Shown: positions 1,032-11,287 of the stretch, piece after piece
Layout of the letters: every line of letters begins with the position of its first letter
Numbering within the stretch: the first letter of the stretch is position 1
Virus record (IMG/VR): IMGVR_UViG_2695420859_000009
From: a virus
Taxonomy: Duplodnaviria; Heunggongvirae; Uroviricota; Caudoviricetes
Reading direction: 5' to 3' (one strand)
DNA length: 11,662 nucleotides
Notes under the pieces: generated by a model
What the model was told of the DNA's origin: nothing
Seen by the model: only the letters and a program-made list of their open reading frames with translations
Databases searched by the model: none
Program-made: the position numbers and the translations under genes

Positions 1032-1451
1032 TTATGATGCGTTTTGTGCTTTCTTTTTACGGATTTCTTCGTAGATCATATTGTAATACTGTTTTTTCTC
1101 TTCAAGAGTTTTTAATAAGTTATCCGCTTCACTTTCTGGCAGTTCGTCTAAGAGATCTAAAAAAATACGTTGTCGTGGCGTTAGAACCCTTGTTTCATAA
1201 TTGGAGGCTGTGTTCGTTGATGATGAAACGATACCATCCATCCATCCCCGGGGTAACCCAAAGGACTCTTCTATAATCTCCACCATATCATCAGCGATCC
1301 GTTTTTTTCCTTTTTTCCCCTCTGGGTACAACATTCTTGATACATAAGAAGGCTCGCGACCGATCTTTCTGGCCACGTTAACCGCTTTACCATCGCATTT
1401 CTCATCACGAATTTTGATGAGTTGTTGTCGTCTAAATTCATATTTGTCCAT
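1032..1451 (-). CDS. racR: RacR-like prophage repressor (cI-type immunity repressor)
   Basis: Track ORF 1032..1493 (minus). The product from MDKYEFRRQQLIKIRDEKCDGKAVNVARKIGREPSYVSRMLYPEGKK matches my memory of Rac prophage RacR. ATG at 1451 is preferred; the track start at 1493 is a TTG and would place an operator-like site (1472..1483) inside the coding region. Start is uncertain. Confidence 0.75.
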   Translation of the reverse strand: MDKYEFRRQQLIKIRDEKCDGKAVNVARKIGREPSYVSRMLYPEGKKGKKRIADDMVEIIEESFGLPRGWMDGIVSSSTNTASNYETRVLTPRQRIFLDLLDELPESEADNLLKTLEEKKQYYNMIYEEIRKKKAQNAS

Positions 1452-1471
1452 AGGTAAATAATAGATGCGAT

Positions 1472-1528
1472 TACCGCAAGGTAAACAACCCAAGGGTATT
1501 GACTTTTGTTTACCTGTGGGTATTCTTT
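1472..1528. promoter_or_regulatory. Divergent promoter/operator region between racR and ydaS: three operator-like sites and a rightward -35/-10
   Basis: Sites TACCGCAAGGTA (1472..1483), AACCCAAGGGTA (1487..1498) and TACCTGTGGGTA (1511..1522) share TACC-N4-GGTA with the palindromes at 950..989. A candidate rightward promoter, TTGACT (1499..1504) with TATTCT (1521..1526) 16 bp downstream, overlaps the third site, just upstream of the ydaS SD AAGGAG. Confidence 0.4.
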
Positions 1529-2242: not shown

Positions 2243-2313
2243 CTGACAATAGCCATATCGAATCGCTTCCGGCAATTCGTGAGTAAAAAGATTCGGTATC
2301 AGAAGAGGTGAGT

Positions 2314-3384
2314 ATGGCTAACGCCTGGCTCAGATTATGGCATGACATGCCAAATGACCCTAAGTGGCGAACAATTGCCAGGGTGTCAGGGCAGCCAATT
2401 GCAACAGTGATGGCAGTGTATATCCACCTCCTGGTGAGCGCGTCACGAAATGTCACGCGAGGTCACATTGATGTCACGACAGAAGATTTGGCAAGTGCGC
2501 TCGACGTGACAGAAGAGGTAATTGATTCAATTTTGCAGACGATGCAGGGGCGGGTACTTGATGGTGATTTAATCACTGGATGGGAAAAACGCCAGGTGCT
2601 TAAAGAGGACAACGGCAATATTTCGCAAACCGCAAAATCTCCGGCAGAGCGCAAGAGGGCGCAGCGTGAGAGGGAAAGAAAGCGGGAACAAAATGGCGAT
2701 TGTCACGGCGCGTCACGAAATGTCACGCACATGTCACGACGAGTCACGACAGATAAAGATACAGATAGAGATACAGATAAAGAAGATCAAAACACTATGG
2801 TCCATGGCGTAAAAAACGCCACGAACCATGTAGGGGATGTTCAGACCGTCACTCCTGGCCAGCCCGCAGGCACGACACCGGAAGCCGATTCAGCGTATGC
2901 GCTGAAAGCCGATTCGGGCGCTGTGCAGCAGGCGATGACCGCTGGGCCGGAGCAATCACACCAACTGCAGCAGCCTGAAGCCGATTCCGCCATTCAGCGG
3001 GAAGCCGATCGGGTAGTCCCGGAAAACACCGGGCAGCCTGTGGGACGAGTGGATTATCCGGATGTGTTCGAACAGGTCTGGCGGGAATACCCGTTACGAG
3101 CCGGGGCAAACCCGAAGAAATCCGCTTTCAGTGCCTGGAAGGCCAGATTACGCGAGGGGGTGCCACCAGAGGCCATGCTGGATGGTGTAAGGCGTTACAC
3201 AAGATACCTGGCTGCTACCGGGAAAACGGGAACGGAATTTGTTCAGCGAGCGACGACGTTTTTTGGACCGGACCGGAATTTTGAAAACCCCTGGTTGCTC
3301 CCGGTAAGCGGCACGAACAACCAGCGTTGTGTTAATCATATTTCTGAACCGGACACCGAAATTCCGCCGGGATTCAGAGGGTAA
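2314..3384 (+). CDS. Phage replication initiator, lambda O-like (iteron-binding N-terminal part, acidic linker, C-terminal domain)
   Basis: Track ORF 2308..3384; ATG at 2314 with GAGGTGAG SD is preferred over GTG 2308. Two iteron clusters and an AT-rich GATA-repeat tract (encoding DKDTDRDTDKEDQ) lie inside the gene, as for ori-lambda inside gene O. It directly follows the immunity/cro-like operon. Confidence 0.65.
   Translation: MANAWLRLWHDMPNDPKWRTIARVSGQPIATVMAVYIHLLVSASRNVTRGHIDVTTEDLASALDVTEEVIDSILQTMQGRVLDGDLITGWEKRQVLKEDNGNISQTAKSPAERKRAQRERERKREQNGDCHGASRNVTHMSRRVTTDKDTDRDTDKEDQNTMVHGVKNATNHVGDVQTVTPGQPAGTTPEADSAYALKADSGAVQQAMTAGPEQSHQLQQPEADSAIQREADRVVPENTGQPVGRVDYPDVFEQVWREYPLRAGANPKKSAFSAWKARLREGVPPEAMLDGVRRYTRYLAATGKTGTEFVQRATTFFGPDRNFENPWLLPVSGTNNQRCVNHISEPDTEIPPGFRG
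2439..2480. repeat. Iteron cluster 1: GTCACG repeated at about 10-bp spacing
   Basis: GTCACG at 2442, 2452 and 2473 plus GTCACA at 2462. The 21-mer CGCGTCACGAAATGTCACGC is repeated exactly in cluster 2 at 2709..2729. Confidence 0.5.
2701..2800. repeat. Iteron cluster 2 (5 x GTCACG at 10-11 bp spacing) followed by an AT-rich GATA/GATACA repeat tract; candidate origin of replication
   Basis: GTCACG at 2702, 2712, 2722, 2733 and 2743, then AGATAAAGATACAGATAGAGATACAGATAAAGAAGATCAAAACACT (2751..2796). Iterons one helical turn apart beside an AT-rich unwinding element is the classic ori layout. Confidence 0.5.
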
Positions 3385-3421
3385 CAGATTTCAGGTCATG
3401 GGGTAATTTTCAGGAGGGCTT

Positions 3422-3697
3422 GTGGCAAAAGTTTTTACTCCCGAACTGCGGGAAGAAGTGAAGGCGCGCATTGTGGAACTGGTACGCAGAGATGGGCGAA
3501 AAACGCGTAAACAACTGGAAAATGAAACCGGGGCGACGAGACACCTGATAGAAGTTCTGGTGAAAGAGCTGGTAGTTAGTGGCGCAGTATATGGTTCAGG
3601 ACATGGAATATTTCCTTCGGAGCAGGCTCGTAAGGACTGGGGAAAAGCCCGCAAAAAAAATGTCGAGAGCGGCAGTGAAAAAGAAGAGCGACCCTGA
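3422..3697 (+). CDS. Small basic protein (91 aa, possible winged-helix DNA-binding), possibly frameshifted into the next ORF
   Basis: Track ORF; GTG start at 3422 with a strong AGGAGG SD 4 nt upstream. The frame ends shortly after an A8 homopolymer (3653..3660), and the +1 frame stays open for another 56 codons. Confidence 0.4.
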   Translation: MAKVFTPELREEVKARIVELVRRDGRKTRKQLENETGATRHLIEVLVKELVVSGAVYGSGHGIFPSEQARKDWGKARKKNVESGSEKEERP

Positions 3698-3830
3698 CCT
3701 GATTTATTCATTGCTAGATGGCGAAATACGCCGTTACAACAGACGACAGAATATAATTTGTCGCGAGTGTCGTCAGAGCGAAGTTATGCAGCGCATACTG
3801 GAATTTTATCAGGGAAATGTTCGGTATTAA
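3579..3830 (+). CDS. Overlapping-frame ORF; its 3' two-thirds (from about 3660) may be the C-terminal continuation of the 3422 gene
   Basis: Track ORF 3579..3830 overlaps 3422..3697 by 119 nt in the +1 frame. The tail LIYSLLDGEIRRYNRRQNIICRECRQSEVMQRILEFYQGNVRY looks protein-like. There is no good RBS for an independent start. Confidence 0.3.
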   Translation: MAQYMVQDMEYFLRSRLVRTGEKPAKKMSRAAVKKKSDPDLIYSLLDGEIRRYNRRQNIICRECRQSEVMQRILEFYQGNVRY

Positions 3831-4073: not shown

Positions 4074-6872
4074 ATGTGGGGAAGTGAAAACAAACAAAAT
4101 CTGGACGTACTGGATCCTGTGCAGTTGGTGCGTATCGAAGCGGTACACCGGGGGTTCCTTTACCAGCATCTTTACGCTGTAGGCTGCTTACTTTTGGCGC
4201 AGAGGGCAGCTATGGACTCAGTAACTGTCGAGCTTGATGAGGATATTGAGCTGAAATCCAAACAGGAACGTCTCTACATTCAGGTTAAAACCCGTTCAAA
4301 ACCTATTATGCCCAACGATGTGTCGGGGGCTCTGGAGCGATTTGTAAAGCTCAGAAATGAGCATACTTCGGCAAACCGCGAAGGGGTGGCTTCTTTTGTG
4401 ATTATTGTAAACCAGGCGCCTGGACCGCTGCTTCAGAAGATGATTGACGATAAAAAGCTTCCTTCTGATGTTCTTATTGTCTGGCCCCAGTCGACAGCTG
4501 GACGTCACCCGGCACTTCCGCCCGCATGGAGTACTCTGGCTGATGCGGCCACATGGTGTATCGCAGAAGCAGAAAAGCTGAAATTTTCACTATTGTCCCC
4601 AGAATCCTTGATTTGGAAGTTAGCAGGATTGGTTCAGCTTGCCGCCACCGGAGGCGATACCAATGGACAACATACGTTTTTCACGGAAGAACTTACTGAA
4701 CTATTTGAACAGTTGATCGTTCAGCTACAGGACTTTCCTGCACCACCAGCACTGTACCGCCCACAGAACGAAGAACCTTCTCTCACATCTGGTGAGCGGA
4801 TCCGTATCCTTTGTGGACTCTCAGGTGCAGGCAAGACAGCTTGGGCCGCACAGGCCGCATTACACTCCACTGCACTTTGTGCTTATTACGACACCGGTGA
4901 TCTTCCCGGTCCAGCTCTGGCCAGTACGCTGGTGCGCGAGATGGCTGCTAGATTTACAGCCCGTGACCAAGACGGTTTGCGCAGGATTTTGCTCCCCGGT
5001 GCCAGTGGTTTTGAGGCTCTTAGGAGTTTTGATACCTACCTGAAAGAGCAGGGTACCACCTTGGTGCTGGTTCTGGATAACGCCCATCGTGTACCTGCGG
5101 AAAATCTACTGGATGTTCTGAATGCAACTACACATATTCGTTTTGTGCTGTTGTGCCAGCCTCACGAAAACGTTCGCGAACTGGAGGTCATGACGGGGCT
5201 ACAGCGCGAGGGCCTGCAGGGATGGAATCTCGATACGGTAGCTGTCGTTGTAAACGATATCGGAGGATTTGCCACCGCTATGGGATACGAGCAGCTACGG
5301 GCTTACACTGGTGGTCTTCCCCTGTATGTAGAGAGCGCCGCAAAAATCGCCGTTTCTGATTATGAGCGTAATGTCGATGCTCTGTGTGCTGAACTCCAGC
5401 AACAAACCCATACTGCGGAAACCGCCCAAGAAATTATTCTGTCACGTGTATTTCAGGGATTTGAATCACTACTTCAGAGCGCGCTGGCATTGTTCAGTCT
5501 CTCTGACGTAGGGCTGAGTCGCGAAGAGATTTCTACGCTCCTAATCAATTCGCTGAACATTTCACCAAGCAGTGCTGCTTCTTTAATTAGGAAAATGCGC
5601 GCTACTGGCACTATTGAAATTTATGGAAACCAGACCCTGAAGGTACATGATGCTGTCAGGGGGCTAGGACTGCAACATCTGGAACTGATGGATCAGGGTA
5701 TATCGAACAAAGCGCTACTAGCGCTGAAAGACCTTTTAGTTGAAAGTCTTCATAATACCCGCAATACAAAACGGTTATCGTTGTTGACTCAACTTTATAT
5801 TAAGCTCAATGATGTCACGACGTTGATCGAACTCTCAGGCCAAGAAATGTTTTATGAGATGGGCGTGACGGTCGACATTCTTGCAAGCTTGGAGCGTGCT
5901 GCAACATCGGACTTATTGGGACCTGTTCATAAATTCTGGGCATTGGATGGCCTTGTTTTCGTTGAGCTTAAAGACGGAATATCCGACCACATTGCTCAGA
6001 GGTTAAACATCATGGGAGCTTTACTTGCGGAGCACAAGTTCGGCTATCAAGAAGAGATGGCCTATGCAATGAAACGAATGTTATTTTCGGCAGAAAGCAA
6101 TGATGCACGAGAAGTTCAAAAGCTGGCACAGGAAGTCCGCCCCCAACTCCCAGATGAAGAACATAAACGCATCTTTGACTACAACCATGCCATTGCACTC
6201 TGGAGATTAAAAAAACTCAAGGATGCTGAAACATTAAGCTGTAATGTTATACAAGGGTACTATTCTTTATTTGGTATCACACCTGCTGATGTCATAGGAA
6301 AAAACGCCGACGCATTATGGAAAACTATTAATCATTCCGAAAATATGCAGGAACACTTTAAACATATGGCTGATGCTCTGGAGTTGCTGGCCAGAATTCG
6401 TGATGCGCAGGGAAAACTGTCACCATTACTGCGTATTCATTCGATGAAGTTCTACAATCTGGCCATGGCCCCGGAATCCATGGTCAGGGTGGGCCAAGAT
6501 CTGGCGGATGAGTTTGTTGCCATAAAGGATTACGACGGTGCCAAGGAAGTCATGGAGCAACATGTCCTGCCGGTTGTCAATGAGGCAGGTCTAGTACATC
6601 GACTGATTCAGGTTCGAAGCCAATACGCAGTCATATTAGCACTATCGGGTCAGCATAAAGCAGCTGATGTCGAAATGCAGCGCCTTGCTCCCTATATCGA
6701 AGGCCTCACAGGTGTACAGCGTCAAGAAATCCAAAATCAATCAAATTACATCGTACAGCTTGCCCATAAAGCAGCAAAGACTAAATTAACTGAAGTTTTT
6801 GGTGCGGTCGGCCGGAATGAACAATGCCCCTGTGGCTCGGGAATAAAGTACAAAAAATGTCACGGTGCCTGA
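4074..6872 (+). CDS. Large multidomain protein (932 aa): N-terminal PD-(D/E)xK-like nuclease-type region, STAND/NB-ARC-like P-loop NTPase, helical repeat region, C-terminal SEC-C zinc-binding motif; candidate single-gene antiphage (Avs-like) defence protein
   Basis: Track ORF with AGGAA SD. Walker A GLSGAGKT (residues 248-255, nt 4815..4838); Walker B LVLVLDN (D335 at nt 5076..5078); GLPL motif at residues 413-416 as in NB-ARC/STAND NTPases. N-terminal GFLYQ...VELDEDIELKS...IQVK resembles Cap4/Mrr-type nuclease signatures (from memory). Terminal CPCGSGIKYKKCHG (residues 918-931, nt 6825..6866) matches the SEC-C motif. About 450 residues of the C-terminal half are predominantly helical by eye. 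The gene is flanked by AT-rich intergenic DNA. Confidence 0.85.
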   Translation: MWGSENKQNLDVLDPVQLVRIEAVHRGFLYQHLYAVGCLLLAQRAAMDSVTVELDEDIELKSKQERLYIQVKTRSKPIMPNDVSGALERFVKLRNEHTSANREGVASFVIIVNQAPGPLLQKMIDDKKLPSDVLIVWPQSTAGRHPALPPAWSTLADAATWCIAEAEKLKFSLLSPESLIWKLAGLVQLAATGGDTNGQHTFFTEELTELFEQLIVQLQDFPAPPALYRPQNEEPSLTSGERIRILCGLSGAGKTAWAAQAALHSTALCAYYDTGDLPGPALASTLVREMAARFTARDQDGLRRILLPGASGFEALRSFDTYLKEQGTTLVLVLDNAHRVPAENLLDVLNATTHIRFVLLCQPHENVRELEVMTGLQREGLQGWNLDTVAVVVNDIGGFATAMGYEQLRAYTGGLPLYVESAAKIAVSDYERNVDALCAELQQQTHTAETAQEIILSRVFQGFESLLQSALALFSLSDVGLSREEISTLLINSLNISPSSAASLIRKMRATGTIEIYGNQTLKVHDAVRGLGLQHLELMDQGISNKALLALKDLLVESLHNTRNTKRLSLLTQLYIKLNDVTTLIELSGQEMFYEMGVTVDILASLERAATSDLLGPVHKFWALDGLVFVELKDGISDHIAQRLNIMGALLAEHKFGYQEEMAYAMKRMLFSAESNDAREVQKLAQEVRPQLPDEEHKRIFDYNHAIALWRLKKLKDAETLSCNVIQGYYSLFGITPADVIGKNADALWKTINHSENMQEHFKHMADALELLARIRDAQGKLSPLLRIHSMKFYNLAMAPESMVRVGQDLADEFVAIKDYDGAKEVMEQHVLPVVNEAGLVHRLIQVRSQYAVILALSGQHKAADVEMQRLAPYIEGLTGVQRQEIQNQSNYIVQLAHKAAKTKLTEVFGAVGRNEQCPCGSGIKYKKCHGA

Positions 6873-7149
6873 GTCTTTGTACGACCATGCGGGCCTTATT
6901 GTCTTGCTATTGCTCTTATGGTTCGCCTTTCTGATTGATTTCATATTGGCGAGGTGACGGGAGTTAAGTAGAATGGCTGCGGGTGCTTGAGGCTATCTGT
7001 CTCAGGCATGAACACCAAAGGCAGATAGAGAAAAGCCCCAGTTAACATTACGCGTCCTGCAAGACGCTTAACATTAATCTGAGGCTCAATCTATGAACGG
7101 CAAATCTAGGTTAGCCTCTTACGTGCCGAAAGGCAAGGAGAAGCAGGCT

Positions 7150-7305
7150 ATGAAGCAGCAAAAGGCGATGTTAATCGTCCTGATCGTCATCTGTTTAACC
7201 GTCATAGTGACGGCACTGGTAACGAGGAAAGACCTCTGCGAGGTACGAATCCGAACCGGCCAGACGGAGGTCGCTGTCTTCACAGCTTACGAACCTGAGG
7301 AGTAA
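7150..7305 (+). CDS. hokD: Hok/Gef-family type I toxin (51 aa membrane peptide)
   Basis: MKQQKAMLIVLIVICLTVIVTALVTRKDLCEVRIRTGQTEVAVFTAYEPEE matches the Hok/RelF family as I remember it. SD AGGAG at 7136..7140. The track ORF 7093..7305 adds an in-frame 19-codon 5' extension. Downstream rem-like and ydfU-like genes fit the Qin hokD neighbourhood. Confidence 0.85.
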   Translation: MKQQKAMLIVLIVICLTVIVTALVTRKDLCEVRIRTGQTEVAVFTAYEPEE

Positions 7306-10070: not shown

Positions 10071-10146
10071 GGCCCTTTAGCTCAGTGGTGAGAGCGAGCG
10101 ACTCATAATCGCCAGGCCGCTGGTTCAAATCCAGCAAGGGCCACCA
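10071..10146 (+). tRNA. tRNA with CAU anticodon, closest to Ile2 (lysidine-type ileX/ileZ-like) rather than Met
   Basis: Cloverleaf folded by hand: acceptor GGCCCUU/AAGGGCC, anticodon loop CUCAUAA (CAU at 10104..10106), T-arm GCUGG-UUCAAAU-CCAGC, discriminator A, encoded CCA. Highly similar to E. coli ileX from memory. Confidence 0.8.
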
Positions 10147-10153
10147 TCACATA

Positions 10154-10230
10154 CCGCCATTAGCTCATCGGGATAGAACGCCAGCCTTCGAAGCTGGTTT
10201 CGCGGGGTTCGAGTCTCCGATGGCGGTCCA
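10154..10230 (+). tRNA. tRNA-Arg (anticodon UCG)
   Basis: Acceptor CCGCCAU/AUGGCGG, anticodon stem CCAGC/GCUGG with loop CUUCGAA, T-loop UUCGAGU, discriminator U, encoded CCA. Confidence 0.75.
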
Positions 10231-10243
10231 TTATCGGTATTCT

Positions 10244-10320
10244 GCGTTTTTAGCTCAGCCGGACAGAGCAATTGCCTTCTAAGCAATCGGTCACTGGTTC
10301 GAACCCAGTACAACGCACCA
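10244..10320 (+). tRNA. tRNA-Arg (anticodon UCU, argU/argO-like)
   Basis: Acceptor GCGUUUU/ACAACGC (one mismatch), anticodon loop CUUCUAA (UCU at 10278..10280), T-arm CUGG-UUCGAAC-CCAG, encoded CCA. Resembles argU from memory. Confidence 0.75.
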
Positions 10321-11086: not shown

Positions 11087-11287
11087 TTTTTTTGTTTGCT
11101 GTTTATTAAAAACACTTCTGCATGGTGAATCCCCCTGTGCGGTGGGGCAATCAGCAAGAAGGAATATGGGGTAATCGCGGATTCAGGTGCTGATACTGAA
11201 TTCACCGGGAGGCACCCGGCACCATGCTTTGCCACAAAAGTGTTATTTCTGTTTTTCTCAAACTATCATCGTTATCCCTTTATTTTC

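Follow-up and report, generated by a model that had tools for sequence, protein, structure and literature searches.

A candidate two-part replication origin within the initiator gene of a lambdoid prophage of the Qin/Rac kind

The stretch of DNA analyzed here (the window) comprises 11,662 nt of a virus of the class Caudoviricetes (IMG/VR record IMGVR_UViG_2695420859_000009) and corresponds to lambdoid prophage DNA of the Qin/Rac kind. One of its genes, coding for a replication initiator of 356 aa (2314..3384, plus strand), contains two clusters of the hexamer GTCACG, the second of them followed by an AT-rich tract. We propose, with a probability of about 0.7, that these elements form a two-part replication origin embedded in the prophage's own initiator gene. 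The gene combines repeats phased by the helical turn, selection on these repeats at the DNA level, a site class that changes jointly in both clusters, an unstable tract, and a junction at which protein modules are exchanged. A probable prophage origin had been suggested at this place in the initial annotation of the sequence, and the conservation of the repeats in homologs, the freezing of their synonymous positions, and the joint switching of the classes, described below, all support it.

The window contains 18 copies of GTCACG, compared with 4.9 ± 2.3 in 200 dinucleotide-preserving shuffles (the largest count was 15, and 18 was never reached), and 9 of them fall in 2442-2748. Cluster 1 (2442..2478, plus strand) is formed by four direct copies at 2442-2447, 2452-2457, 2462-2467, and 2473-2478, spaced by 10, 10, and 11 bp; three of them are exact, and the one at 2462 reads GTCACA. 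It lies 229 bp upstream of cluster 2 (2702..2748, plus strand), where five direct and exact copies start at 2702, 2712, 2722, 2733, and 2743, i.e., with spacings of 10, 10, 11, and 10 bp. Both clusters share an exact 21-mer, GCGCGTCACGAAATGTCACGC (2438..2458 and 2708-2728, plus strand), which is present nowhere else in the window. The number of copies in each cluster, the spacing in cluster 2, and the shared 21-mer are as given in the initial annotation, which overlooked one more copy, placed in inverted orientation at 2505..2510 (minus strand; CGTGAC on the plus strand). No degenerate sites were found between the clusters, i.e., there is no continuous array. At the protein level, cluster 1 codes for the loop region of the initiator at aa 43-55, the inverted site for Asp-Val-Thr, in the turn ahead of a putative recognition helix, and cluster 2 sits in the linker that joins the N-terminal domain to the C-terminal one, adjoining the AT-rich tract.

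The spacing of 10-11 bp places successive hexamers in different codon phases. All three phases are occupied, and the hexamers are read as Ser-Arg, Val-Thr, or Gly-His, which indicates DNA elements rather than repeats of a peptide. When the first 160 residues were back-translated 20,000 times with resampled synonymous codons, 1.8 ± 1.2 GTCAC were obtained (largest, 7) versus the 9 observed, so the protein sequence by itself does not account for the hexamers.

Lack of conservation in homologous initiator genes had been named at the outset as a result that would refute an origin here; both clusters turned out to recur across genera. A scan of one genome per species provided 26 loci with N-domains 47-91% identical to that of the window, from Escherichia albertii, Rahnella, Serratia, Aquitalea, Bordetella, Pseudomonas, Acidovorax, Chromobacterium, Gilvimarinus, Pantoea, Enterobacter, Sphingomonas, and others. 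Most of them have four GTCAC at gene positions 129-160, the inverted copy at 193, and three to five further GTCAC at ca. 387-430, where cluster 2 keeps its place with 3-5 copies and variable spacers. The AT-rich tract and often the inverted repeat that comes after it (see below) are also found with both clusters at the same gene positions across genera. In an alignment of 16 homologous genes from different genera, with a third-position GC content going from 0.36 to 0.76, the third-codon positions of the cluster 1 hexamers are conserved at 0.992, against 0.559 elsewhere in the domain (permutation p < 1e-5). Cluster 2, in turn, is kept within a linker that otherwise can hardly be aligned at the protein level, and the point changes seen among ca. 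90 Escherichia coli loci are almost entirely in the spacers and not in the cores. A first scan of viral contigs with the N-domain of the window had given 80 loci, in 79 of which this domain is identical (99% in the remaining one), a set that is uninformative for divergence and was later used for population variation. At the other extreme, both clusters are still present, at the corresponding gene positions, at 38% protein identity in the Ralstonia phage Firinga, with the site type GCAACG. The length of the loop coded by cluster 1 changes in steps that keep the frame (45, 48, 66, and 90 nt), and an Arg-Gly pair is retained in it in all site classes, which indicates that this segment is under constraint both as protein and as DNA.

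The sequence of the sites varies among homologs, and it does so in both clusters at once. We classified 85 non-redundant loci by their dominant motif, taking the loop and linker segments independently, and found GAACG in both segments in 42 cases, GTCAC in both in 34, GTAAC in both in 5, no motif in either in 3, and a motif only in the linker in 1. The class was therefore the same in 81/81 loci with a repeated motif in both segments; the compared loci are related by descent, so that these counts, like those of the inter-cluster distances, overstate the number of independent events, although there are at least four site classes and many distinct distances. GTAACG appears in Pantoea, Enterobacter hormaechei, Marinobacter, and Sphingomonas; a large number of environmental viral contigs carry CGAACG(C), and Firinga carries GCAACG. 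The ACG end is common to all the site types, which differ from one another in the first three positions. Where an inverted copy exists, it changes in step with the direct sites. It is present in 25/28 GTCAC-class genes, in which Val65 is always encoded by GTG (giving GTGAC), as GTTAC in the GTAAC-class locus L024 (Val = GTT), and as CGTTGC in the GCAACG-class Firinga. It is absent in 38/39 GAACG-class genes and is thus not a universal part. In two loci of the GTAAC class (L020 and L024, gene nt ca. 125-190), the spacing of cluster 1 is ca. 21 bp rather than 10, and GTCAC or GTGAC variants are interspersed among the sites. GTAAC is barred from the codon phase that would read TAA, so the reading frame seems to restrict where sites can be placed, which fits the longer spacing of this class. 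The usual hexamers are absent from both segments in L029, L112, and L178; the last has five 9-bp CGTAG(A/T)TGG repeats beside (GATACA)n and copies of GTAGTAACTACG ca. 330 bp upstream.

The site class does not follow the C-terminal module: comparison of 86 C-terminal parts gave 20 similarity groups, of which 10 are combined with the GTCAC class and several are common to more than one class. The neighboring genes also vary for the same N-domain and sites: there is no recognizable loader in the window or in phage Tritos, the next gene in L003 is a lambda P-like “replication protein P,” and a DnaB-like helicase is found in Firinga and in a 50.9-kb circular record of Pseudomonas aeruginosa. The N-domain columns that are informative on the class are aa 45-56 and 65-69 and, more weakly, aa 30-33. 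The first two segments correspond to the loop (aa 45-56) and to the turn with the beginning of the putative recognition helix (aa 65-69); cluster 1 and the inverted site encode precisely these residues. It is tempting, if doubtful, to imagine that the site and the “reading head” of the protein share the same DNA, so that a change in the site would alter both together. If true, this would be a built-in route to new origin specificities (GTCACG, GTAACG, CGAACG, and GCAACG) and to replication independence from co-resident prophages.

The P. aeruginosa record just mentioned (CP137943.1, L193, deposited as “plasmid unnamed1”) has GTCACG sites in two clusters, at the same gene positions as in the window. 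Its genes (S24 repressor, CII, initiator, DnaB-like helicase, NinB, and NinG) are those of a lambdoid phage, and it may be an episomal or induced phage captured in the assembly. A search of plasmids for natural mini-replicons recovered only large records and two such circular phage-like records of 50.9 kb, which are suggestive of autonomous replication but are not proof of it.

That the repeats lie inside a replication initiator gene, as first annotated, is borne out by the match of the product of 2314-3384 to PHROG 3729 (“replication initiation protein”) along its whole length (1-356/356, E = 5.5e-253). The protein gave no Pfam match at standard thresholds, and the lambda O domain (Phage_rep_O) did not match the N-terminal part even at E ≤ 10. 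Weak matches to PHROG “replisome organizer” families, together with source annotations of relatives that include “phage replisome organizer,” suggest a distant, sub-threshold relative of the replisome organizers; the initiator is not a homolog of lambda O. The N-terminal domain, presumably the one that binds the sites, is winged-helix-like and spans aa 1-95 (2314..2598, plus strand). Its AlphaFold2 model is confident over aa 4-95 and has helices at 4-9, 16-25, 29-45, 56-63, and 67-77 and a beta hairpin at 78-88; cluster 1 codes for the predicted loop at aa 46-55, and the inverted site for the turn ahead of helix 67-77. The C-terminal module (2830..3384, plus strand), a presumed recruiter of the host helicase machinery, has PHROG matches to the “DnaD-like helicase loader” and “primosomal protein” families. 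It ends in the tail VNHISEPDTEIPPGFRG (3331-3381, plus strand, the last 17 codons), which resembles the C termini of E. coli DnaT and Rac YdaU, and the last 24 aa match the C terminus of the NCBIfam DnaT model. DnaT is a component of the preprimosome thought to bring in DnaB/DnaC (PMC13377028), and a similar role of this tail in recruiting the host machinery may be taken as a lead.

Between the two parts, directly after cluster 2, the AT-rich GATA-repeat tract already noticed at first extends over 2749..2796. It has a purine-strand bias and 30% GC and is made up of ACAGATAAAGAT three times (as 12-bp units ACAGATAAAGAT, ACAGATAGAGAT, and ACAGATAAAGAA) plus AGATCAAAACACT. At −49.8 kcal/mol (mean, −63.5; standard deviation, 4.4), its duplex has the lowest stability of all 45-step stretches between 1501 and 3400 and ranks third lowest in the window as a whole. 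We presume that it serves as the unwinding element; it is also the recombination joint between modules. Repeats of the GATA(A/C)A type follow cluster 2 in most of the homologs shown, and among the ca. 90 E. coli loci their copy number differs in steps of 6 and 12 bp. The tract is followed immediately by an inverted repeat, ATGGTCCATGGCGT/ACGCCACGAACCAT (2797..2829), also overlooked before, with 14-nt arms of which 12/14 positions are complementary and a 5-nt loop. A GC-rich inverted repeat is found after the tract in many homologs with unrelated C-terminal modules, with a mean perfect stem of 5.6 versus 4.6 in the background and a stem of at least 6 in 47/86 loci. Read on the minus strand (2829-2797), the inverted repeat is followed by a T-rich run and scores as intrinsic-terminator-like; it could stop antisense transcription into the origin or be a coincidence. 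A search of 2300-2900 against Rfam gave no RNA family. Within the linker of the C-terminal module (2881-3010), GAAGCCGAT(T/C) appears four times, at 2881, 2905, 2977, and 3001, always in the same codon phase (EADS, KADS, EADS, and EADR), and the first pair has one copy fewer in the O157 relative L004. It could be a peptide repeat of variable copy number or a further DNA element.

The AT-rich tract is also the junction where C-terminal modules are exchanged. Loci L003 and L099 have the N-domain and cluster 2 of the window and switch, inside the GATA-repeat tract, to a DnaT-like C-terminal module. The reverse is found in L004 (O157:H7) and phage PhiR5_2, which have the C-terminal module of the window from AAAACACTATGGT on and an unrelated N-domain. 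In L004 and L005, AAGGGGCTT repeats form two clusters (2160-2200 and 2420-2455 in L004; 2085-2125 and 2330-2365 in L005), followed by GAACAG repeats and then by the inverted repeat and C-terminal module of the window; the AAGGGGCTT repeats belong to the O157:H7 prophage and to PhiR5_2, and in the latter the second cluster is inverted. Similarly, ydaU of Rac (in the oriJ region; L192, 3761-4160) has a DUF1376 N-domain, and its (A/G)TGTTCAA repeats are followed by GATA-type AT repeats (AATAAAGATACAGATAAAGAT) and by an inverted repeat made of a C-run and a G-run. Its product shares the IPPGFRG tail with the initiator of the window, and plasmids based on oriJ reportedly replicate. These layouts indicate that several initiator families share one plan, i.e., an N-domain with its own sites, purine-rich AT repeats, and an exchangeable C-terminal module, often with an inverted repeat between the last two. 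The initiators of Rac and of the O157/PhiR5_2 type differ from that of the window in their N-domains and site sequences, and in their prophages a DnaC-like ATPase gene comes after the initiator, whereas the window has none. The ydaUVW genes are still described as being of undetermined function (PMC11014345).

The identity of the binding protein, the melting of the tract, the loading of the helicase, and the role of cluster 1 are read here from sequence, and the events that we propose are as follows. The N-terminal winged-helix-like domain would bind the (T/G)GTCACG direct repeats in a head-to-tail array, and, with sites one helical turn apart, the bound proteins would be aligned along a single face of the double helix. 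At cluster 2, the five sites would set this array against the GATA(A/C)A tract, which would be destabilized and open first. The exchangeable C-terminal module, through its DnaT-like tail, would bring in the host DnaB/DnaC, the prophage encoding no loader. Cluster 1 and the inverted site would be a second set of sites for the same protein, forming a loop with cluster 2 and aiding assembly. We favor this architectural and positive role, via looping, since cluster 1 stays ca. 230 bp upstream in nearly all members despite the coding cost, since the distances between clusters lean to whole helical turns, and since a lytic replicon has little use for the copy limitation typical of plasmids. Looping or handcuffing between the clusters, as envisaged in the initial annotation, is an inference; what speaks for it is their joint conservation and a suggestive helical phasing of their distances.

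Several points weigh against this proposal. The N-domain was identified as the likely binder by elimination. The best Foldseek match in the PDB had E = 0.16, and the weak matches were mostly to winged-helix regulators, which is why the fold is described only as winged-helix-like; a profile of the domain searched against the sequences of PDB chains produced only spurious low-complexity matches. The match to Pfam PF09681 (Phage_rep_org_N), between residues 5-123 and positions 1-119 of the 121-position model, is also sub-threshold (E = 0.008, 16.6 bits versus a cut-off of 23.3). Loci L029 and L112 keep long GATAAA repeats without recognizable sites. The helical phasing is a modest signal (Rayleigh p ~0.006 for 32 distinct distances) from phylogenetically related loci. 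The inverted repeat after the tract, considered as a universal feature, proved to be only frequent (47/86 loci), and in the window it doubles as coding sequence. In the source strain, both the prophage integrase (L001, 5164-6214) and the DUF977 gene next to the initiator are annotated as frameshifted, so that the copy in the window is probably defective and may be inactive or never fire, although the initiator gene and the sites are intact. Finally, our literature searches turned up neither experiments on this family of origins nor any account of it, of its hexamers, or of the second cluster.

Of the other explanations, the one that survives best, even if we think it rather unlikely, is that cluster 2 and the AT-rich tract are the whole origin and that cluster 1 with the inverted copy is a negative control element, comparable to the separate control clusters or inverted half-sites of P1, F, RK2, and pPS10-type plasmids. 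It would act by handcuffing with cluster 2, by titrating the initiator, or by autoregulation through a block to transcription. The existence of two discrete clusters of one site, with nothing degenerate in between, speaks for such a control, and the direct/inverted pair at 2473 and 2505 resembles the operators of plasmid Rep dimers; the absence of the inverted copy from nearly all GAACG-class genes means, however, that an operator role would not be general. Cluster 1 is inside the transcribed initiator gene, so binding to it could impede expression, but a lytic phage hardly needs to limit its copies, and in the lysogen the repressor already silences the module. It is true that unwinding of lambda in vitro needs only the iterons beside the AT-rich tract (PMC7466680), yet the near-constant upstream position of cluster 1 and the suggestive phasing fit an architectural role equally well or better.

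A much more remote alternative is that the repeats are cis sites for another factor, such as the repressor, a regulator of the Cro/CII type, a host protein, or a packaging or recombination function, or else a recombination-hotspot sequence between gene modules. The tract is demonstrably an exchange junction, and the initiator is a presumed binder; on the other hand, the site class tracks only variable segments of the N-domain and neither the C-terminal module nor the neighboring genes. The repressor could be ruled out, since the intergenic region between the repressor and cro, where its operators would be expected, contains no GTCACG, and a hotspot would leave unexplained the helical spacing, the second cluster, and the synonymous sites frozen from Escherichia to Bordetella. 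To peptide repeats or chance codon choice with no function in the DNA we give practically no credit, even if the 12-bp units of the tract are always in an Asp-Lys/Thr frame (the tract by itself could be a charged linker) and every Val-Thr dipeptide encodes GTNAC, since the change of codon phase (SR, VT, and GH) and the synonymous resampling (1.8 versus 9) rule this out, the synonymous positions of the hexamers are frozen amid saturated surroundings, and the amino acid sequence of the cluster 2 linker is not conserved otherwise.

The embedded two-part origin that we favor had been equated with the arrangement of ori-lambda, which holds for the layout of sites and tract and fails for the lambda-type iterons, the O domain, and the P-type loader gene. 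In lambda there is a palindrome beyond the AT-rich tract, and in hybrids of lambdoid phages the ori specificity goes with the N-terminal half of O, which matches the module exchange at the tract in the family of the window. The origin of lambda is located in the middle of gene O, with O-binding iterons and then an AT-rich tract where unwinding occurs (PMC7466680). In the same way, cluster 2 and the tract at 2749-2796 are inside the initiator gene, at the junction of its N- and C-terminal parts, and this gene comes next to cro and cII in the early-right operon, downstream of both, as lambda O does. However, the lambda iterons (described in part in PMC7466680) are four, or six in Stx phages, longer, and bent, whereas the sites of the window have a core of 6 bp, repeated directly at intervals of 10-11 bp. 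The window also differs by its second cluster 229 bp upstream, within the sequence coding for the DNA-binding domain, by an initiator without the lambda O domain, and by the lack of a P gene following it.

The other close parallel is oriL of phage SPP1, which is within gene 38, has AB boxes bound by G38P beside an AT-rich unwinding element, and is sufficient for replication in vitro (PMC5737612). The likeness lies in the sequence layout, with repeats and an AT-rich element within an organizer-like gene (binding is presumed in the window), and in the alignment, end to end if sub-threshold, of the N-domain with PF09681. SPP1 is, in contrast, a Bacillus phage rather than one of a proteobacterial host, the sequence and spacing of its sites are different, and in the window no loader and helicase genes of the G39P/G40P type come after the initiator. 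Moreover, the second G38P-binding region, oriR, is in a separate region of the SPP1 genome, while clusters 1 and 2 share one gene and are separated by only 229 bp. Other replicons, too, have discrete clusters of one initiator site (P4 ori/crr, R6K gamma with alpha/beta, P1 incA, F incC, and RK2 oriV), in which looping (P4 and R6K) or handcuffing (P1, F, and RK2) mediated by the initiator is established; those of the window, presumably also bound by a single initiator, differ in their short distance and in being both within the initiator coding sequence. By analogy, cluster 1 may be likened to the separate site sets of P4 ori/crr or to the spread DnaA boxes of oriC. As far as the sequence can tell, the layout is like those of ori-lambda and SPP1 oriL, and neither the domain, the iteron type, nor the missing P partner places the window in the lambda O family.

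In E. coli, this prophage DNA adjoins tRNA-Ser and mtfA, and strain Z1322HEC0003 has a 100% match to the window. The initiator gene is preceded by a repressor gene (1032-1493, minus strand), a cro-like gene of the YdaS family (1552-1833), and a cII-like gene of the YdaT family (1817-2242). After it come the DUF977 gene (3422-3830), a nuclease/ATPase-like open reading frame (ORF) of 932 aa (4074-6872), hokD/sok, and then DUF968, RusA, and Q. There is no P-type loader gene 3′ of the initiator, a place taken by DUF977 and the 932-aa ORF, and phage Tritos has no P, DnaC, or DnaB-type gene after its initiator either. Phage records under the names Tritos, Evi, vB_EcoS-640R1, and others contain the initiator gene with a DNA identity of 96-97%, and 1,647 of 5,426 complete E. 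coli genomes hold at least 80% of a 1,171-bp query made of the gene with short flanks (2250-3420). Relatives come from across Proteobacteria, as well as from isolated phages of Escherichia, Aeromonas, Pseudomonas, and Ralstonia, and RefSeq labels the protein mostly as “hypothetical.” The 932-aa ORF, located between the replication module and hokD/sok (where Tritos carries another gene, in the opposite orientation), has matches to the Cap4 dsDNA endonuclease domain, an AAA ATPase, and a SEC-C motif and looks like an accessory anti-phage defense candidate. Matches to Rfam in the window correspond to the sok antitoxin RNA by hokD (6981-7155), three tRNAs 3′ of the Q gene (10071-10317; Ile, Arg, and Arg in the annotation of the source genome), and the sRNA STnc100 (11091-11263).

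If our proposal is right, these genes would represent a very widespread and so far uncharacterized family of replication origins with at least four site classes. Two of its features are new, namely, a second cluster of sites placed in the sequence coding for the loop and turn of the DNA-binding domain, under a dual constraint, and the strict joint switching of both clusters. The gene would be a natural case of two overlapping codes, a protein sequence and the presumed binding sites of that same protein. The signature could be of practical help for the annotation of phage origins and for building mini-replicons. For the biology of these elements, it would provide a model for how replication starts in lambdoid phages without a loader, and the site class should predict the replication compatibility of co-resident prophages.

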